NCBI GenBank assembly: GCA_963801605.1
Contig: CAWDFP010000004.1
Location: 1 to 39,642 of the forward strand
Direction: 5' to 3'
Origin: an uncultured candidate division Zixibacteria bacterium
GTDB taxonomy: Bacteria; Zixibacteria; MSB-5A5; UBA10806
Length of the DNA stretch: 39,642 nucleotides
Part shown: positions 6,212 through 39,642 of the stretch, piece by piece
Layout: each line of letters starts with the position of its first letter
Numbering within the stretch: position 1 is the stretch's first letter
The notes under the pieces: model-generated
Told to the model about the DNA's origin: nothing
What the model saw: only the letters and a program-made list of their open reading frames with translations
Database searches by the model: none
Translations under genes and position numbers: made by a program

Positions 6212-8034
6212 TTATTTCACCAAAACCAGCTTTACTAACGCTTGCCCCTCCGCTGCTACGCGCGCGAAATAAATGCCGGACGAAACCCCGCTGGCATCCC
6301 AGAGCGCTCGGCCGTGGGGGGCATGGAGTGAAGTGATAATTCTTCCAGTGATATCGTAAATCTCAATCTCAGCATTTTCGTTTCCTGAAAGCGTTATCGT
6401 AGTGGCGGAATTGAAGGGGTTAGGATAAGCGGACATTGAGATTTCTTTTGGCAATTGCTCCTCATTTCCTTCTATCGCGGAATATCCAGGAAGATAAGTG
6501 AAGGAAAATACGGAATCAGGCGCGTTTGATGGTGAATTGGAAATGTTTTGCCATTTGTCAGTAATACTATAATAGTAGTAAATCGTCTCTCCGCTATCTA
6601 CCTCAGGAATAATTCCATAATAGGTATAGGCTCCCGTATAATGCATGGAATCCGAGTTAAATGAAGTACCATTTGTAGAATAATGAATATGGCAGGAAAG
6701 TTCATAAGGAGAAGCGATGCCGTCTTTGGCTATGAGCCTAACCGAATATGGTCCCCTCAATGTATCAATAATCGGAAATATATAGTGATTTATCAAATAA
6801 GGTGGAATGGAGTCTGGCAAATTAAGCGTATTAATAAAAATTGAATTCTTACAAATCCCTGCACCAACCCGAAACGCATCCTCATCTCCATCCCCGTCAA
6901 AATCACCTACCGCAATACTCCTAGTATCGCCCGATTGGCTCGGCAACCTTAATTCAGTTTGATCGCTAAAATGCCCAGTCCCGTCATTAATAAATAGGAA
7001 ATCAGGATGATCGTTAATCGTACCTAAAATTAGGTCATCATCTCCGTCATTATCAAAATCAGACGCCTTTATATCGTACGGCAAACCATTTCCGGTTGGA
7101 AAAAATGGTCCCCTTGCTTCGGATTCATCGCTAAAATGCCCTGCTCCGTCATTTATATAGAAGCCTAATCTATAGGCAAATGATTCTACAATATCGAAAT
7201 CACCGTCATTATCAATATCCGAAAAATTAATAGATGGCGAATATAGGGTTGATTGGGGCAACCCGGCTGAAGTCTCGTCAATAAAATAGCCTGTACCATC
7301 ATTAATGAAGAGCCTACGGCCACTGCGGCCGTTATTATCATATGAAGCTAAAATGTCGGGATCAAGGTCGCCGTCGACATCTGCCATTTTTATGCAGCGA
7401 TATAATGTGTCGATAACAGGTAGCCTATAAATCTCGTCATTAAAGTAACCCAATCCATTATTTATCCATAATCTATGCGATCTTGGCGCTACTATGTTGC
7501 CTAGAAGGCAGATATCAATATCGCCATCTCCACCAATATCGGCATAGTCTCCTGTTAGAGAATTGGATGTGTCACGTGGTAATCTCCCCCAATCAATACT
7601 AAAAATACCATTCCCGTTATTAATAGCAATATAATCTGTCTTATAATTATAATTCACCTTAAAAGCATCAAGGTCACCATCGCTATCAATATCAAAAAGT
7701 AGGTCGACAGACGTTTCATCATTTCTTTGGGGGAAATACGCCTGGAATCGGTAAGTATGAAATAACCGTCTCCGTTATTTATAAAAAGCTGTGCGTTGCC
7801 CGGGAGACCTGTAATATCCGGAAATTGCCCCACCAATAGGTCTGGGGTACCGTCGGCATTTACATCTCCTTCGGCGACCGACAATGAGACTGATACGGTA
7901 TCGGAAAGCCTAGCCACAGACTCGTCTATCAATTGCCATTCTTCCTGCGCAAATGAAGACAAATATAGTAAAGCTATAAAAGCAAATACTGCCGGAATAC
8001 AAATATAAAGTTTTCTATCATTCCCTGATTGCAC
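6212..8034 (-). CDS. FG-GAP/VCBS repeat protein with T9SS type A C-terminal sorting domain (frameshift near 7650-7750)
   Basis: Signal peptide ending LSSFA|QEE. Repeated D(V/F/I)DxDGDxD and (F/Y/W)INDGxGxF motifs. C-terminal AYPNPFN...IYDITGR...SSGIYF...KLVLVK. Joined ORFs 7654..8034 and 6212..7657. Confidence 0.85.
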
Positions 8035-14467: not shown

Positions 14468-15891
14468 ATGAATCCAAAAAAGTTGCTGCTTGTTGCGATA
14501 CTATTTGCCGCTCTGACATTATCAGGGAAATGCAGCCTGATCAATGTCTCCGGAGATGTCAGCGGAGTCTGGAATGTCGACTCAGTCATGGTGGTGGGGC
14601 CAATCATGGTACCATCGGGCGATACCTTGCTTATTCATGCGGGCACAACTGTCTATGTACAATGCTCCAGCATGAGTTATGTTTTCAGAGTAGAGGGCAC
14701 GTTGATAGCAACTGGCAGGCCGGAAAACCCAGTAGTATTCACCAGGGGGGATCAATGGCTGTTCTGGCATATCGATTTTCATAATAACGCTTATGGGAAT
14801 TTTACATATTGTGAATTTTTATACGGCCGCTGGGGATATAACAATGGAGGCGCCATAGCCGCGGATTCATCGAATATTAAACTGGATCATTGCCAAATCG
14901 TAAGCTGCGGGGCACTTTATTCTGGCGGAGCCATTTATTGCAGCTATTCCAACCTGCGGGTATCAAATAGTTTAATCTCGAATAATTATCTGGGGGACTA
15001 CCCGGAAAATCCCGATGCATGCGGAGGCGGCATATACTGCAATTACTGCGACACTGTAGCCATAGTCAATAATCAAATTATCGGCAATATCATTATAGGA
15101 TTCGGATTTAATTTATCAAACGCCAAAGGCGGCGGCATGTATCTCGCAAACAGCCAGCAACCGGCCATATTACCGGCAATCTTATGCTGGGTAATGTCGC
15201 GTCAAGCGACGCCGGCTATGTTGGATTGGCAGTTGGCGGCGGAATATACTGCGATTGGGCGACCATTGAGAATAATACAATCGTGGGCAATCTGGCACGC
15301 TGTTTGGGTTCTTCCTATTTGATCAGCGGCGGAGGGTTAGCTGCCGGCCCGGATAATACGGTACTTAACAATATCATCTGGGATAATTGGGCCGATTCCT
15401 CAGCCCAGATTTATGGCCAGCCGCAGGTTACCTATTCCTGCATAGCCGGCGGATGGTCCGGCATTGGCAGTTTCGATTTAGATCCCCAGTTTTGCGGCCC
15501 ACTTTACGGCGATTACCATATTTCAGCGCAATCGCCCTGCGTCTCCGGCGGGTACAATGGAACCCGGGTTGGAGCGTTTGAGGTGGGATGCGATAATGAA
15601 GCCGTAATATCTGATCCTGTTACACCGAACGATTTTCGCCTATACGGCTGCTATCCCAATCCCTTCAATATGGCAACCACTATCAGCTTTGATTTATTTA
15701 CGACGGGCCATGTCCGGATTACAGTCTATGATTTGACAGGAAGCCTGGTTGAAACGGTAGTGGAGGCAGGCATACAAGCCGGGTATCACGAGATAACCTG
15801 GTCGCCTAAAGATATTTCATCGGGCATTTATTTCTGCAACATTTCAACCGGCAATTTTTCCCAAACTCAAAAGATGTTACTGGTAAAGTAG
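14468..15891 (+). CDS. Right-handed beta-helix (Pmp-like GGAI repeat) protein with T9SS type A C-terminal domain (frameshift near 15170)
   Basis: Signal peptide; GGAI/GGGIY repeats; NNIIWDN, DPQFC, SPC; C-terminal YPNPFN...VYDLTG...SSGIYF...KMLLVK; RBS GGAGG. Confidence 0.85.
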
Positions 15892-31362: not shown

Positions 31363-32734
31363 CTACATTTCGTCAAGCGACTTGATTGTAACCTTGCCGA
31401 TTGTCTTCAAGCTGTCCTGGACAGCCGCGGCATTCGAAACTATGCTAAAGACCAGATTTTCCATATCGATGTGATTTTTAGCAGCATTGAGTATATCGGC
31501 CTTACTCACCTTCTGGATATTCTTCGTAAAATCCTTGATATACGAAACCGGTAAGCCATACAGCTTAACCTTAATGATTTCATCTGTAACCTGCATGGGG
31601 GTTTCGAGAGTCATCGGATAAAAGCCGGAATAGAAGTTGATGGCATCGGTGTACTCGGCGTCGCTGACTTCGATCTCCTGCATCCCCTTGATAACCCTAA
31701 TCGATGCCCTGATGGCGCTCATGGTGGAGTCGTTTTCGGTGAAGGTATTACAGTAATAGGCGCCGGGCATGATATTCCACTCATTGGCAGTGCGGATATC
31801 ATAGGTCATACCGCCCTTTACGCGAACCTCTTCATTGAGCCGGGAAACGAAACTTGAACCGAGAATATAATTCATGAGGGTCATGGCGTAGTAATCGGGG
31901 TTTTCGCGAGTGATGCCGAAATGGCCAAAACGGATATTGGTTTGGGTAGCGTCCGATTTGTCTATTAGTAGAATCTTATAACCCTCGGGAGATGCCGGTG
32001 TAGAAATATTCAGAATCGGGATGCTACCTTTCTTCCAATTCTTAAAGGCAGATTCCATCTTCGTGAAAATTTCCGACGGCTTTAATATCGCCTGCTATTA
32101 CCAAAAAGGCGTTATTGGGACGGAAGTAATCGTTGTAGAATTTTACGATGTCATTTCTGGTGATTCCGGTTACTGATTTTTCAGTACCCTCGGTTGGATG
32201 CCCGTAAGGATGATTGCCGAATAGCGCAGAGTTAAAACCTTTTACGCAAAGACTATTGGCGTCGTCTTTAGATTGCACGATACCGCTGAGAGTTTGATTT
32301 CTAAGGCGTTCGACCTCGCTGGTATCGAAAACCGGATTGAGGACAATATCGGTCAGCAGATTTATCCCACATCGAGATGCTTGGACAGGACGCCATCGAA
32401 TATGATGATAGCATCGCGGTTGGCCGATGCATCAAGCGAGCCGCCCACGAAATCGATCTCCTCTGCGATCTGGGGAGCAGTGCGGGTCTTGGTCCCTTGA
32501 CGGAGCAGGCCGGCGGTGAAATTGGCCAGCCCAGCCTTATCGACTGGGGTCATAAGCCGAACCTGCCCTGATAACCATCTTCAATGTGATTGTAGGCAAC
32601 TCGTGGTTTTCTATTGCAACTACCACCAGGCCGTTGCTGAGAGTGTCCTCGGTGATCGGGGGCAGCTTGACCTCATTAGCGCCGGCCAGTGTAAAGGAGA
32701 AGATCACCAACATTATAGCGATGTATTTTTTCAT
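31363..32734 (-). CDS. M16 (pitrilysin-like) peptidase, non-catalytic subunit (frameshifted)
   Basis: Signal peptide; TLSNGL, KAGLANFTAGLLRQGT (no HxxEH), HPYGHP, YFRPNNA, SRLNEEVRVKGGMTY (R/Y pair). Confidence 0.88.
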
Positions 32735-32744
32735 AGTCACCTTC

Positions 32745-34089
32745 CTACTGCGCATCACTGGCGGCGCCGGCGGCTTTAGGCTGCTCGGGAATTAGAGTTA
32801 TAACGGTCCTCTTGGTATCCACCAGATATTTATTTACAACTCGCATGATATCCTCGGCGGTAACGGCCTGAACTTTGTCGGGGTAGCTGTAGATATTCAT
32901 ATAATCATCGGTATCGATTTCGAAGCTTCCCACCTGGCTGGCACGATCCTCATTGGATACTAAACCATTGATAAATTCGGCTTCCATCTGGTTTTTTGCC
33001 TTTTGCAATTCTTTGGCGGAAACAGGCTACCGTTTTGAGCTTGTCGATCTCCTCATAGATAGCTTTTTCAACATCTTTGATTTCGACTCCGGGAACAGCC
33101 TGCGCTCCCACAAAAAACAGTGAGGGGTTATTGTTAACCATAGCCTCACCCTCGATAAATAGGGCTTTCTGCTCGGTGTAGACGAGACGGTTATAAAGGC
33201 GCGATGATTCGCCGTTGAATAGGATATTTCCCGCAACCTTCAAGGGAACGATATCGGGGTCTTTGCCGGCGGGGATTTTATATCCCGCAAATAGTGCCGG
33301 TAATTGAGCTATACGATGAAAGTCGATTCTCTTTTCTCCAAGTTGTTCCGGCTCGATAGTCTTTACCGGTGGAGGAGTTAATTCGGCCTTTAGAGGTTTG
33401 TAGTACTTTTCCACCAACTTCATCGCATCCTTGGGATCGAAATCACCTGCAATAACCAGGAAGCTATTGTTGGGGGAATAATGAATGTGGTAATAGTCAA
33501 GGCAATCCTCAAGCGTAATGGCATCGATATCGGACCGGAATCCTATCGGCAGCCAGCGGTAAGGATGTGCTATAAAAGCGTTATTGAAAAGCTGTTCATA
33601 TAGGGCGCCGAATGGCGAATTATCGAAACGCCAGAGGCGTTCATTGATGACCACATTACGCTCGGAATTGAGATTTTCCTCGTTGATTTTGAGGTGCCGT
33701 GAGCGGTCGGCCTCCAATGCCACTACGATATCCAGCTTATCTGATGGGATCACCTCATAGTAGGTGGTGTTGTCGAACGCGGTCCAGGCGTTATTGATGC
33801 CGCCGTTACCATATATCAACCGGTCAAATTTATCCTTGGGATAATTATCCGTACCTTTGAACATCAGATGCTCGAACAGGTGCGAGATGCCGGTAATACC
33901 GGGACGTTCGTTTCTGCTGCCAGTCTTGTACCAGGCCTGCAATGTCACCGTAGCCGCCGAATGGTCCGGAATTAGAAGAACCATAAGCCCGTTATCGAGC
34001 GTATGTTTTTCAATCGGGAAAGCCAGTTCGGCTGCCGGTGAGACAGAGGTCAGGACAAGCAAAATTAGGGCGATAAATCTCACAATCAT
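32745..34089 (-). CDS. M16 (pitrilysin-like) zinc peptidase, catalytic subunit (frameshift near 33010)
   Basis: Signal peptide; LDNGL, GISHLFEHLMFKGT (HxxEH), NAWT, ERNVVINER, HPYRW, YSPNN, SSRLY. Confidence 0.92.
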
Positions 34090-34098
34090 GCTTTCCTC

Positions 34099-36476
34099 CT
34101 ATTTTATTTCCAAGTCAAACGGCGCTTTATAATAAAATCCCCCATTTCCTGCATCTTTCAGAAGTTCGCTAAATTGCGATTCCAAACTCTGCACACCAAA
34201 TGAGGGAAGTATGGACATGGCATAAATCGGAAATGATTCTATCTGCAATTCATCTTCGGGATCAATCTCGGCTTTCAAGCGAGCCTGTTCGATCGCCTCC
34301 CAGATGCCGCCATAGGTATCTATAAGACCGCATTGAAGCGCTTGCCGTCCGGTCCAAACCCGCCCTTGCCCAATAGCATCGATAGAATCGGCCTCGAGTT
34401 TTCTCCAAGTGCTGACCTTATTGACAAAATCATTATAGTAATCCCAGAGCATGGTATCGATAAGCGCCATTTCATCGTCGGAGGCGGGGCGATTGGTAGT
34501 CCTGATATCGGCATGCGCTCCTCTCTTTATCGTCTCATTTCTAACGCCGATCTTATCGTAAAAACCGGAGAGATCAGGCTTGCCCATCACCACACCGATT
34601 GAGCCGGTGATAGTCCCAGGAGAGGCTAATATCTCATCGCCGGGACAGGCGATATAGTAACCACCAGAGGCTGCCACGCCTCCCATAGAAACTACGAGCG
34701 GCTTTTTGCCTTTAAGCAATTCCAATTGGCGATAAATTTTCTCTGATGCAAAAACATCGCCGCCGGGCGAGTTCACTCTAAATACAACTGCTTTAATGGA
34801 ACGGTCGTAGCGAATCTTTTTCAAGGTATGAACCAGTGTTTCATCGCCAACAGTTTTTCCCTCGATAAGGCTACTCCCATTTTGACCCTGCATTATGGCG
34901 CCGTTGGCATAAACCACCGCAATCTTTTTAGGTTCGCTCCAGCGGGGATTATAATCCTTGATCGCGTAAAATTCGAGTAAATTAACCTGATTAAGATTCA
35001 TATCCTCGGCATTATCTCCGGCAATCTCATCGAAATGTTTGAGGCCATCGATAAGACCCGCCCGATAGGCCCTTTCTGATGTATAGGGCCCGGAATCTAT
35101 CAGGCTCCTGACTTTCTCAGGCAAAACTCCTACCGGCGGAGATGCCATCGACAAACTGCGCATAGAGATCATCGAGCAGCCAATCGATCTGCTCTCGCGC
35201 AGCGGGGGTTAGGGTTGTATCGGTGTAGGCGTCGCCATAAGTTTTATGCGGACCGGTGTGGACAAATTGCGCTCTGATTCCCAGCTTGTCCATGGTTCCC
35301 TTGTAGAATCTGGCATTAGCCGCTAATCCCTTTAGTTCCAAGAAGGCCGGTCGGATCCATGTAAATTTCATCGGCGGCGGATGCCAAATAGTAATCCGAG
35401 TTGCCCGCCACGCTCATAAAGACCGTTACTTTCTTACCATTGGCTCGAAATGCGGAGATAGCACTTCGGAGTTCCTGAGCCGATGCAAAATCAAGCTTGA
35501 TTCCGTCGAACTTTATGAGTAGGCCTTTGATTCTGGCATCTGTGGCGCCCCTGTGGAGGGCATTGATTACTGAATAAAAAGATTGCTTGCGGCCCCCGAA
35601 AGAGGAGCCTATTCCTGGGCTCTTCGGATATATTGTCACCCAGCTATATCTCCCCCGTTCTGTTTGGACCGGGACAGTCTCGCCGAAACGGACCATACCG
35701 ACTTCCATCGAGTAGGTACCACCAGCCCAATCTTTTTCATTACGCAGCTTTCCCTGGCCGCCGATTCTGGTCGTTTCAAAATCTAAAGTCATACCCATGC
35801 GCCATTGACCCTCGGAACGATATTCTCCTGAGAAGGAAACGCCGTGAAATGGGCCGGCCCCGACACGAACGCTGCTTTTCAGCTTTGAGAGTTCATCTCC
35901 TTCGAGCCAGCGAGCATCGGAGGAGATGGTAAACTTATCGCCGATCGGCCGCAGGGCCACGCCGGGCATGTAGAGACGTTTTTGTTTTATTCCGGCAAAT
36001 TTCGGTTCATTGATTCTATCGAAAACCAACCCCATCGAAACAATTGGGCGAGGCCGAAACATCATACCGAATTTCCAATCTCTTTTCTTATGATAGATTG
36101 GGCTGCCGCTCGAAAACCAGCTATAGGATAGGCCAACGTAGAAATTGGACAATACGCTATCGCCCATAGCCAGCGTATATTTCCGCCTGAAAATACCGCT
36201 GGAATGATTCAACCATTCGATACCGAAGAAGCTTCCTTTTGAGGAAATCATGGCGCCATCATCGCCTTTGTAGCTTGAATCGGTAAAGGTATGGGCATAG
36301 AGGAGACCCATAGAACTCCAGTATCCAAGACCCGCCGGATTTAGCATTCCTGACAGGCTGCGATCTACGGTCGCCACGGATTCAGAAAGATAATCGGCGC
36401 CCTCAACCATCTGCGCCGACACTTGTACGCTGAAAATACTTAAAATAATAAAAACAGCGAGAAAGGCGTATTTCAT
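34099..36476 (-). CDS. sppA: Signal peptide peptidase SppA (tandem S49) with N-terminal beta-barrel-like extension (frameshifted)
   Basis: S49 N-domain (ELRSAISAFRANGKKV, YYLASAADE, HTGPHKT) and C-domain (RVNSPGG, VAASGGYY, TGSIGV, GQGRVWTG). About 270 aa beta-rich N-terminus with LNPAGLG after a signal peptide. Confidence 0.88.
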
Positions 36477-36537
36477 CTCCACTCCTTGAAAAATTCCCTA
36501 TAGATAATAGCAGGCATGAATTGTCGTGGCAAGAAAT

Positions 36538-37686
36538 TTATCTGCCTTCTAACTCGATTACGCCGATACCGCTTATCTTAAGTTCAATCCGGCTACGGCC
36601 ATCGCCGACAAAACCCTCAAGGTGATTGGAATCGATATGCGTCGGCTTGAGAGTCATATCGGAAGCATGGATACGGCCGCCGTTATCGACAATAGCCACA
36701 ATCTGCGACGATAAAGACCGCGGCAATGTCACGTTAATATTATTATAATTATTGTAAATAAAAAGCTGGCTGTCTTCGATAAGGCTAAAATCCGCTTTTA
36801 TCGGAGAATAGCTGGTTTCGATTTTAGATTGTCCGTGAGTCAGGGAACAATCGCTGATTGTAATCGGGCTGAAGGTAGTTTCGCAAATCAGCTCGCCCGA
36901 GACATTTTCGACTTTGATTGGTGAATAGCTTGTCCTAAAGACTATGCTCCCATCGCTCGCCGTGATATCGTTGGCGCTGATTTGCGAATAGGTTGTATAC
37001 GCTTCCACGGGGCCTTTTATATTCGAAAGAGATATTGCCCCGCCAGTATTTTGGAAAATTGCGCTTCCCGTAGAGACCGTGATATCTGCGCCGCTAATAG
37101 CGCCATAACGATTTTCCGCCTTGATACTGCCTTCGATATCGGATAATTCCAACGCCGCGAATGAAGTCGTAATGTCGATAGGACCTTCGACATCCGTAAT
37201 GCTAATCGCAGAAAATGCCGCTTTTAGTACAACTCCCGCAAGCGGCCCGTTAGCCTCCAAACGCATAAATTGAATATCTCCCTCGATTCTCATTTTCTCC
37301 GGAATTTCGATCAAGATGTCAAGTGCGACCTGGTTGTTGGTTCCCTGCCAGGGAGCATCGAGCGGAGTGAGAATGCTAAGAACGGCCCTGTTATCGCCGT
37401 GGTTCTGCAATTTCATGGATATCAAGTCGAGGAAGCGCATCGCCTGGGAATCGCTTCCCGCCCTGGCGGTTTTTTTATAGTTGACCGTAATAGCGCCGTC
37501 ATCATGAGTTACTATGCCTATAGAGCCAGCAAGATTTTTGCACCCGTCAATTTCCAGCACATCCAACCCATCTGTAGAAATAAGCATATTACCTGTCTGG
37601 ATAACAGGCTCAGAAGCCCCTGCGAAGGCCAGGCAAGTCAGAACTGAAAGCAATGTCAGTGCAATAATTCTCATTTTTCGCGACAT
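36538..37686 (-). CDS. DUF4097-like beta-strand repeat (putative adhesin) protein
   Basis: Signal peptide; repeated (T/S)x(F/Y)(S/G/A)xI...(V/I)xG units; IEIPE motif; C-terminal GRSRIELK. Confidence 0.75.
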   Translation of the reverse strand: MSRKMRIIALTLLSVLTCLAFAGASEPVIQTGNMLISTDGLDVLEIDGCKNLAGSIGIVTHDDGAITVNYKKTARAGSDSQAMRFLDLISMKLQNHGDNRAVLSILTPLDAPWQGTNNQVALDILIEIPEKMRIEGDIQFMRLEANGPLAGVVLKAAFSAISITDVEGPIDITTSFAALELSDIEGSIKAENRYGAISGADITVSTGSAIFQNTGGAISLSNIKGPVEAYTTYSQISANDITASDGSIVFRTSYSPIKVENVSGELICETTFSPITISDCSLTHGQSKIETSYSPIKADFSLIEDSQLFIYNNYNNINVTLPRSLSSQIVAIVDNGGRIHASDMTLKPTHIDSNHLEGFVGDGRSRIELKISGIGVIELEGR

Positions 37687-37736: not shown

Positions 37737-38636
37737 CTAAAACTTATTAATTCTTGGGTCGTATATGGCGGCTGAAATGAGGTCGCCGATAGTTTTTAGC
37801 GATGCCGGAGAGCATTTATCGGGCGTATCCTCTTGGGTGTGCCAATAAGGATAGTCGAAATCAATAATGTCGATTGCTTTTATACGATTTGAGAGCAACG
37901 GAATATGATCATCCGAAATAGCGTGTTTTACCGAATCGTTGAAGGCCGTAATGCCTTTCTCTTTGGCGATTTGCCAGATATAATCATTAACGTCCTTAGC
38001 GTACTTTTCCGAGTAAGCCTCGCGGTAGATACCGAGATTGCTATCCCCTACCATATCAAGCAGGATGGCCGCCCGTGGCCTGTAGCCGCCGAGGTTCCTG
38101 GCAAAATAATAGGAGCCTAAAAACCAACCATCTTCACGCCCATTCAAGCCGTAATCTTCACCGTCGAAAAGCACTATATCAACTCCTACAGGTGGCGGGT
38201 TGGCCTTAAAGATTCGCCCCAACTCCAGCAAAACGGCGGTTCCGGATGCTCCGTCATTAGCGCCGATTATGGGCTCATTTCTTCTAAGTGAATCCGGTTC
38301 TTGCTCGGCTCGTGGTCGACTATCCCAATGAGCACATAGTAAAATTCTGCGTTTATTTTCTTTGTTGTAGGAGGCAATAATATTAACAAGATTTAGGGTG
38401 CTACCGGTCAGTGAATCATAATATGTAAACGGTTGCCGACGGCATATATCTGTTGTAGAAGACAGCGACTGGAAAAGAAAGTCGGCGGTCTTGTCATGGG
38501 CCGGAGAATTGGGGGCGCGCGAACCGAACTGGCATTGCGCTATCAGATCACCATACGCCCTGTTGCCATCGAACAATGGCGCCTGTTTCGCTGAACAGGC
38601 ACAAATCAGCAGCATAACGGGCAGGAGCTGTCTCAA
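37737..38636 (-). CDS. M28-family lipoprotein, glutaminyl-peptide cyclotransferase-like
   Basis: Lipobox-like ICAC; AHWDSR, GANDGASG, FDGEDYG, WFLGS, LLDMVG, SDDHIP, YWHT. Confidence 0.88.
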   Translation of the reverse strand: MRQLLPVMLLICACSAKQAPLFDGNRAYGDLIAQCQFGSRAPNSPAHDKTADFLFQSLSSTTDICRRQPFTYYDSLTGSTLNLVNIIASYNKENKRRILLCAHWDSRPRAEQEPDSLRRNEPIIGANDGASGTAVLLELGRIFKANPPPVGVDIVLFDGEDYGLNGREDGWFLGSYYFARNLGGYRPRAAILLDMVGDSNLGIYREAYSEKYAKDVNDYIWQIAKEKGITAFNDSVKHAISDDHIPLLSNRIKAIDIIDFDYPYWHTQEDTPDKCSPASLKTIGDLISAAIYDPRINKF

Positions 38637-39642
38637 AATCTAATCTCCGCAGTTATTCCAAGCTCTCTGATATGGTGCTTACGTTTTTGTATTGTATCGT
38701 TAGAATCATCCCAACGCGCCCTGATGCCGCCAGAGATAGAGCGAGAGAACTGATAATTCATACGCGGTTCGACGACCAGATTGCTTTTTTGGGAATCAAT
38801 GGATTTAATTCCTTCTGAAATTGATTCTGAACGCGTTTTCTTAACAGTAATATCGAGGTTCATGGAAAGCTGGCTGTTGAACTTGACCCTCTTCAATATC
38901 GGTAATTTCATGCCCTTGGGAGCAGCAAAACTATAGCTCAGCGAAAGCTTTAGCGTATTCTCAAAACCATAGGTATCGCGATTGGTTTGGCCTATACCGC
39001 GCAGATTCAGCGAAATAGTGTTGCTTTTATCATATCGCAAGGACACTTTAACGCTGTTTTTTAGCGTGATATTAATAGCTGCCAGCGGAGTCCAAAGCTT
39101 CGAGGTATCTCTTTTATATTTGATGCCGGTATCGGCTTCGCCATTTTCGTCGACCTTTCTGGTGTATGTCGATTGCAGGCCTACGGATGTTGAAAACTTC
39201 TTGAAGATGATAAGTTTTTCAAGCCCCGAAAGGGTCAGCGAAATATCGGGAAATGTGGTAGATTTGGCGGCAATTGGCTCTGTCGAGCTTCTGGTGACAC
39301 TTTTGCGAAGAGTGTAGCCGGTATTTATATCAATTCCATGACCGGGCTGAAAGCCGGAATCCAGTTCATAGGTATCTGTGAAAACAGATTGGTTAAGGGC
39401 TCCGAGCGAGGTAGTAGATTTAACTCTCGAGTTATGCCTTTCAGATAATCCGAACATATACTCCCAGCGCGGACGATCGAGTAAGCCCTGCACTCCCAGT
39501 CTCTTATCTTTAAGATATGAGCCTCGAACCGGTTTAATACTCCTAAAAAATCCGGTAAATTTATGATAGACCCAGGCCGGGGAACCAATACCAGGGCCTC
39601 CCGGAGATGCTTTCTCCTCTTTATCTTCTCCCTTCGTCTTTC
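38633..39642 (-). CDS. sprA: C-terminal part of a large outer-membrane beta-barrel, probably T9SS translocon SprA (5' end beyond window)
   Basis: The frame extends upstream of the tracked ORF to about the window edge. Amphipathic beta strands, RPRWEYMFG, WTPLAAINIT, YQFSRSISGG, terminal ...AEIRF. T9SS cargo genes occur in the same window. Confidence 0.7.
   Translation of the reverse strand, partial: KTKGEDKEEKASPGGPGIGSPAWVYHKFTGFFRSIKPVRGSYLKDKRLGVQGLLDRPRWEYMFGLSERHNSRVKSTTSLGALNQSVFTDTYELDSGFQPGHGIDINTGYTLRKSVTRSSTEPIAAKSTTFPDISLTLSGLEKLIIFKKFSTSVGLQSTYTRKVDENGEADTGIKYKRDTSKLWTPLAAINITLKNSVKVSLRYDKSNTISLNLRGIGQTNRDTYGFENTLKLSLSYSFAAPKGMKLPILKRVKFNSQLSMNLDITVKKTRSESISEGIKSIDSQKSNLVVEPRMNYQFSRSISGGIRARWDDSNDTIQKRKHHIRELGITAEIRF

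Follow-up and report, generated by a model that had tools for sequence, protein, structure and literature searches.

An SppA-type peptidase fused to a predicted FadL/PorV-like outer-membrane barrel in Zixibacteria and myxobacteria

SppA peptidases belong to the S49 family, and the cited literature, as far as its available text extends, places S49 peptidases at the inner or cytoplasmic membrane. E. coli SppA (protease IV, 67K type; MEROPS S49; TIGR00705; PDB 3BF0, 3BEZ) is a tetramer with an N-terminal helix as its inner-membrane anchor, and it degrades released signal peptides (available text of PMC9360617). The title of PDB entry 4KWB describes B. subtilis SppA with its own C-terminus bound in the active site. 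FadL-family barrels transport hydrophobic molecules, and FadL releases its cargo sideways into the membrane (available text of PMC12611786). Two barrels of this group, PorV on SprA and BamG on BamA, are adaptors on larger barrels, and BamG serves as a scaffold, not a channel (available portions of PMC12611786 and PMC12578637). Here, we describe a protein, barrel-SppA, in which a predicted barrel of this type is followed by a tandem S49 protease. The fusion is real, conserved and apparently undescribed: a literature search for SppA or S49 fused to a barrel (FadL, PorV, Myxococcus, Zixibacteria) returned no description, within a coverage that leaves out most subscription papers.

The barrel-SppA gene occupies positions 34099–36476 on the minus strand, like its parts and the neighboring window genes described below, of the window, the whole 39,642-nucleotide stretch of DNA that was analyzed; it starts with ATG at 36476 and stops at 34101–34099. 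Its product opens with a predicted cleavable Sec-type signal peptide (residues 1–21, 36414–36476). This signal-type N-terminus ends in VQVSA and is followed by Q22 (36413–36411), in agreement with an earlier note on this DNA, and its cleavage is predicted from the motif. A predicted N-terminal plug, or hatch (residues 22–56, 36309–36413), contains NPAGL at 36341 (Asn codon 36341–36339) and precedes a beta-barrel (residues 57–260, 35697–36308) with 14 predicted strands, a FadL/PorV fold and very short loops. The earlier note had allotted about 270 residues to the barrel; the domain is present, but it is only about 240 residues long (residues 22–260). A linker (35600–35696) leads to the N-terminal S49 domain (approximately 35000–35599; PF01343), and the C-terminal S49 domain, a conserved tail and the stop codon follow (34099–34999; TIGR00706). 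Both S49 domains are borne out by PF01343, which matches all three frame pieces of the gene, and by TIGR00706, which scores 208 bits on the C-terminal domain against a cut-off of 155. TIGR00705 could be scored only on the frame-broken fragments of the window (227, 57 and 41 bits; cut-off 311). No Pfam match was obtained in the first ~290 residues.

The C-terminal 500 residues of barrel-SppA match E. coli SppA, with which the protein shares the tandem S49 arrangement (30% identity; Foldseek E 2e-40). The catalytic residues are split between the two S49 domains, as previously proposed: Lys of HTGPHKT (35245–35243) lies in the N-terminal domain, and the nucleophile Ser of AASGGY (34668–34666) lies in the C-terminal domain. 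A second Ser, of TGSIG (34602–34600), is also in the C-terminal domain. The intact homologue P0002 has K411, S604 and S626 at the positions of E. coli K209, S409 and S431 (numbering from the chain offset). All 84 full-length fusions among the 150 best barrel-profile representatives keep the catalytic Lys and Ser. The two enzymes differ in their membrane attachment, given that the helix anchor of E. coli SppA corresponds to a predicted cleavable signal and a 240-residue barrel in barrel-SppA, whose catalytic part is also predicted to be periplasmic. The C-terminal tail carries a conserved motif (Pro, aromatic, x, hydrophobic, x, hydrophobic, x; window 34102–34122), with Pro in 73 of the 84 fusions, and is a low-confidence part of the AlphaFold2 (AF2) model.

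In the assembly, the barrel-SppA gene is spread over three frames. Frameshift-aware alignment to the intact homologues P0002 and P0003 places four breaks, two compensating indels in the linker (near 35644 and 35610) and two in the N-terminal S49 domain (near 35342 and 35125), and leaves no in-frame stop. Separate ORFs for barrel and protease were considered and rejected. ORF 35316–36482 holds the barrel and the first S49 domain in one open frame, and a search with barrel residues 30–275 against 570 longer candidate proteins gave 34 matches (25–85% identical), all of them 778–810 residues long and all with PF01343, one carrying the label candidate division Zixibacteria; the barrel–S49 fusion is therefore not an artefact. 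The breaks could also mean that this copy has decayed into a pseudogene, inasmuch as four indels are present and no read or contig crosses them; contigs of four public runs were aligned to the gene and none spans any of the four breaks, the five public DNA runs listed for the gene each containing at most 0.10 of its words and no RNA run being among those listed. Decay is nevertheless very improbable and was rejected. Frame changes occur in 9 of the 21 window genes that have an orthologue elsewhere in the bin, including secA with five, and the barrel-SppA gene is 71–88% identical to intact homologues in every segment. Because of these widespread frame changes, the four indels are, by this indirect judgement, probably sequencing errors.

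The bin itself consists of two related organisms, and the window is rich in indels and duplicates genes of contigs C6 and C11. The window genes rho (98% amino acid identity), secA, dus, larB/larC and an FHA gene recur on C6. The run sprA–M28–toast-rack–barrel-SppA–M16–M16 recurs intact on C11, with 56–73% protein identity and 65–68% DNA identity to the window run.

What is the nature of the N-terminal domain? AF2 modelled window residues 24–270 from a 37-row alignment as two short helices and 14 strands (pLDDT 91.4, pTM 0.87). Full-length P0002 (40 rows; pLDDT 86.0, pTM 0.84) was modelled with the same 14 strands followed by two S49 domains, with low confidence at residues 14–23 and 757–792. 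The full-length pTM, in a model built like the other on 37–40 sequences, hints at a fixed geometry between barrel and protease. In both models, the plug is formed by the two short helices ahead of strand 1. Its NPA motif, which in the barrel-SppA of the window lies at residue 25 of the mature protein, is highly conserved (N in 137, P in 142 and A in 134 of 143 rows). Among 48,161 solved chains, the barrel model best matches PorV (6h3i_F; Z 24.5, rmsd 2.9 Å, 243 residues aligned), followed by a FadL homologue (3dwo; Z 24.0), TodX (21.1), FadL (21.0) and chains of three Bacteroidota BAM complexes (21.6, 21.4 and 20.7), which we read as BamG from the available text of PMC12611786 and PMC12578637. 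The next fold class follows at Z 16.6, and identities to the top chains are only 9–13%. By this model comparison, PorV and FadL are tied as the nearest fold. Foldseek ranked generic porins high by E-value and gave the best TM-score to PorV (0.71–0.74); with the full-length model, it returned only SppA/ClpP folds. The domain thus folds in the model as a membrane-type barrel of the FadL/PorV class, as the earlier note had suggested from the NPA motif.

At the level of sequence, hhalign links the barrel profile to PorV-family proteins encoded in these genomes (probability 94%, E 1e-7). Among 59 barrel representatives, no match to PorV (PF19572) or a FadL-family Pfam entry was found at E up to 0.05, and three showed weak sub-cut-off matches to PorP_SprF, Porin_4 or TraF_2. 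A search of the PDB with the barrel profile gave no match at E up to 10. None of the 30 nearest ESM Atlas clusters has a name, and the nearest named ones are PorP/SprF, UPF0164, PorV and TraF_2 (0.89–0.90), which is a lead only. The barrel domain has no Pfam family despite 1703 matching clusters at 50% identity (E up to 0.001; 603 at E up to 1e-10).

The topology of the barrel bears directly on the location of the enzyme. In 154 aligned rows, the alternation of hydrophobicity is strong in strands 3–12 and weaker in strands 1, 2, 13 and 14. The loops after odd strands measure 6, 7, 9, 14, 8, 3 and 3 residues, the turns after even strands measure 2, 2, 2, 6, 2 and 2 residues, and strand 14 ends on the short-turn side. 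Short turns of outer-membrane barrels usually face the periplasm. Therefore, the C-terminal protease is predicted by the model to sit in the periplasm. Simple heuristics applied to 118 full-length homologues identified an N-terminal hydrophobic core in 109 and a lipobox pattern in none, and a 19-residue hydrophobic window (KD 1.8 or more) after residue 45 is absent from all 118. A signal without a later inner-membrane helix, combined with a 14-stranded barrel, points to an outer-membrane anchor, in line with the prediction of the earlier note.

We propose that barrel-SppA is a periplasmic SppA-type protease with an outer-membrane anchor and that its task is the clearance of short peptides close to this membrane. 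This reading is probable as a whole; its architectural part is very likely, and the substrate class is its weak step. Barrel-SppA would be exported by Sec and cleaved by SPase I, and its barrel would be inserted into the outer membrane by BAM, as for OmpA-type proteins, which are BAM-inserted and have a C-terminal periplasmic domain. The usual inner-membrane helix of SppA would be replaced by the plugged 14-stranded barrel, and the S49 parts would likely be periplasmic and suspended from the underside of the outer membrane. There, they may form an SppA ring whose opening faces the outer membrane, and they would likely remove short peptides that are unfolded or hydrophobic, the substrates being putative fragments of envelope proteins. 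The products could pass to other periplasmic peptidases, such as the neighboring M16 pair, and the barrel would mainly be an anchor or docking unit without a T9SS shuttle function. Several observations weigh against this proposal. The alternation is weaker in strands 1, 2, 13 and 14 of a barrel modelled on 37–40 sequences, M16 genes are not downstream in several other loci or in the Myxococcota locus examined, and barrel-only genes (see below) suggest that the barrel probably does more than anchor. If true, the proposal would place a self-compartmentalised protease beneath the outer membrane in many diderm phyla, at a site different from that of the S49 peptidases in the available text of the cited literature, and would give the FadL fold a fourth use besides transport, T9SS shuttling and BAM scaffolding.

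Alternatively, the barrel might be a gated channel through which peptides or lipopeptides from outside are fed to the protease chamber beneath it. Such a feeding device would fit the carriage of hydrophobic molecules by FadL-family barrels (available text of PMC12611786), the peptidase-rich neighborhood in the window, the retention of barrel-only derivatives and the high full-length pTM. However, the plug fills the small barrel, and FadL cargo exits sideways, not down the axis, according to the same text. FadL/TodX/TbuX/CymD channels (PDB 3DWO, 1T16, 3BRZ; Z 21.0–24.0) share the fold of the barrel model but have long extracellular loops and chains of 404–444 residues, compared with ~240 residues, loops of 3–14 residues and a C-terminal enzyme in barrel-SppA. 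Few lumen residues are conserved beyond Gly, Pro and NPA. We thus consider the feeding device unlikely. A broader variant, in which an SppA ring beneath several plugged FadL-type barrels has substrate actively delivered to its chamber by the barrels, in a widespread and undescribed system, is also unlikely, though less so. Its substrates would be clients stalled at an Omp85 machine, or peptides that are extracted from the outer membrane or drawn across it. If true, Zixibacteria, KSB1, Calditrichaeota, Poribacteria and myxobacteria would use it at the outer membrane as the equivalent of signal-peptide clearance at the inner one.

In the window, two M16 peptidase genes (31363–34089; PF00675/PF05193; one frame change each) lie directly downstream of barrel-SppA. 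A gene for a secreted toast-rack (DUF4097-like) protein (36538–37686) lies upstream, followed by an M28 peptidase gene (37737–38636; PF04389) and the 3' end of sprA (38633–39642). The 61-bp gap upstream of barrel-SppA contains a promoter-like site (36504–36532; 10 of 12 with a TG-extended -10), which is a hint only because the region gave 14 sites versus 13.4 expected. The toast-rack neighbor is conserved in the phylum: the window protein is 37–40% identical to own-order copies, and a homologue stands directly 5' of barrel-SppA in 18 of the 19 loci L031–L049. PF13349 matches four of these homologues, and Pfam gave no match on the window's protein. In the other orders of the phylum, the conserved context consists of a divergent patatin-POTRA-Omp85 gene, spoU, toast-rack, barrel-SppA and often an M16 pair; M16 genes follow in all five loci whose downstream gene of that size was scanned. 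The spoU methylase and patatin-POTRA-Omp85 genes are kept as neighbors across most of the phylum.

This context raises the alternative that the barrel is a docking adaptor, which would bind an outer-membrane machine, most plausibly Omp85, and park the protease where stalled substrates are removed. The patatin-POTRA-Omp85 gene is divergent nearby in 6 of 6 loci scanned (L031:4468–6960, L032:4114–6741, L035–L038), the nearest solved folds include PorV and three chains read as BamG, both adaptors on larger barrels in the available text of the sources cited above, and the less hydrophobic strands 1, 2, 13 and 14 could form an interface. Nonetheless, the Omp85-type neighbor is missing at the locus of the window's own order and at the one Myxococcota locus examined, and a ring of several barrels is hard to fit on one machine. 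BamG (PDB 9N2D, 9HJM, 9HJ3; Z 20.7–21.6) shares the fold of the barrel model, but it is a stand-alone protein with surface-lipoprotein-binding loops, whereas barrel-SppA lacks those loops and carries a periplasmic enzyme. BamG makes contact with BamA by way of an extended N-terminal tail. In our judgement, the docking adaptor is improbable.

A third alternative is a T9SS-linked peptidase, raised in the earlier note together with outer-membrane quality control, which would act on secretion tags or stalled cargo at SprA. PorV, the T9SS shuttle (PF19572; PDB 6H3I chain F), is the top structural match and shares 14 strands and the NPA plug with the barrel model. In addition, barrel-SppA is co-oriented with the sprA 3' end, which gives a weak TIGR04189 match and is 63% identical to the C-terminus of a 1999-residue SprA on contig C11; the gene run does begin with sprA, but two genes intervene. 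SprA matches in 201 of 201 phylum genomes, so that its co-occurrence with the barrel inside the phylum is uninformative. We compared the positions of the two genes in the 99 of 201 genomes that have both among the matches listed, leaving out barrel-only matches. The sprA gene lies about 3 kb upstream of barrel-SppA in 12 of 13 genomes of the window's own order and is adjacent in none of the 86 genomes outside it. In seven of those 86, the two genes share a contig at a distance of 82 kb to 2.4 Mb, and in 79 they are on different contigs, a number that fragmentation makes partly uninformative. No SprA-sized frame was found in 17 other-order loci of 20 kb. Thus, sprA is a local, order-level neighbor.

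Outside the phylum, the barrel matches in 63 of 101 Myxococcota genomes and SprA in 0 of 101 over the TIGR04189 cut-off, which also missed the B. thetaiotaomicron control; two weak SprA matches both fall in genomes without a barrel match. PF19572 does not match the barrel-SppA gene. PorV-family genes of the window's own genome are found at other loci, one directly behind a 1348-residue C25 (porU-like) gene. The barrel domain is ~100 residues shorter than PorV, is fused to a protease and has 11% identity to it. PorV binds C-terminal secretion tags on its extracellular loops, and the loops of 3–14 residues argue against such binding by barrel-SppA. On these grounds, a survey of synteny and co-occurrence with sprA, porU and porV indicates no general association. 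PorV orthology of the barrel was rejected on the lack of a PF19572 match and its presence in genomes without SprA over the cut-off, and T9SS dependence was rejected on the Myxococcota distribution and the own-order-only adjacency. A T9SS role as a general function is largely refuted and in our estimate highly improbable, and outer-membrane quality control is preferred over it. The window's genome contains nine C25 matches, and proteins with a T9SS C-terminal sorting domain are encoded at 6212–7657 and 15184–15891 of the window, one with FG-GAP repeats. At another locus (L052; G000:C6:1382362–1384623), directly behind the porU-like C25 gene, the PorV-family match is split (profile 7–46 and 49–239) within one 862-residue frame, with an insertion of roughly 530 residues immediately past the plug.

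Barrel-SppA itself is widely distributed. Of the 201 genomes of the phylum, which is named Zixibacteria from the labels of homologues, 196 have a barrel match, and most of the matching frames are about 800 residues long. Fused proteins carry the source labels KSB1, Poribacteria, Calditrichaeota and Myxococcaceae. The barrel was confirmed in 117 of 117 fused proteins tested. All 12 Myxococcota loci fetched are barrel–S49 fusions, and cultured carriers include Myxococcus, Corallococcus, Stigmatella, Archangium and Cystobacter. A DNA-pattern search with a single Myxococcaceae protein as the query led to one locus, and a search of a plasmid collection for barrel-SppA gave no match. The 150 best barrel-profile representatives comprise 84 full-length fusions, 20 partial ones, 23 barrel-only-like proteins that end near the barrel end without S49, and 23 other fragments.

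Barrel-only genes of 260–300 residues were identified at several loci (L038:9189–10013, L039:9828–10652 and L067–L071; L015, L017–L019 and L050). In family f11, 5 of 5 genomes have a gene that ends just past strand 14, and it still occupies the ancestral locus, with the toast-rack gene on one side and the M16 pair on the other. These genomes also carry a fused copy of another subfamily elsewhere, and the four readable copies have both Lys and Ser intact. Barrel-only paralogues are present in family f2 as well. Each barrel-only set groups with fused relatives (quick-mode tree, SH-aLRT 99), and a single clade of the eight barrel-only rows, a group chosen after the first tree had been inspected, was rejected (p-AU 2e-47; 28 rows, quick-mode tree). 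These trees indicate that barrel-only genes derived from the fusion at least twice. Retention of the barrel without the enzyme is a hint that the barrel probably has a role beyond anchoring. The fused copies of family f11 (L072–L076) form a distinct long-branched subfamily that groups with P0143, and they were possibly acquired from another lineage.

Is barrel-SppA the only SppA of these cells? The window's own genome has a short S49 gene without a barrel on contig C7 (G000:C7:175893–176640), which starts with a hydrophobic helix and is frameshifted in the assembly as well. An S49 frame of 298–345 residues is also present in each of ten further genomes of the phylum, and five Myxococcota genomes each contain one or two barrel-less S49 genes. 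A barrel-less S49 gene is thus present in all 16 genomes checked, which include kin and are not independent. Since the own-genome copy has a hydrophobic helix, the classical signal-peptide job is presumably covered elsewhere, and barrel-SppA appears from gene content to be an addition and not the cell's only signal-peptide peptidase.

The outer-membrane part of these proteins is hidden because they are annotated only as SppA. The copy in M. xanthus DK1622 (ABF87886.1/Q1D9H3, 832 residues), for example, is annotated as SppA 36K type. This protein was not found by name in the main text of the outer-membrane/vesicle proteome PMC3222651, as far as that text is available, or in the text and two supplements of PMC4158809, which weakly disfavors the proposed anchored protease. 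As M. xanthus DK1622 is genetically tractable, localisation, knockout phenotype and substrate can be tested in this strain. Some Myxococcota barrel matches lie in longer frames of 1152 (G218:C14:19017), 1046 (G258:C12:1564) and 1516 (G224:C147:7529) residues, and these proteins possibly carry extra domains.
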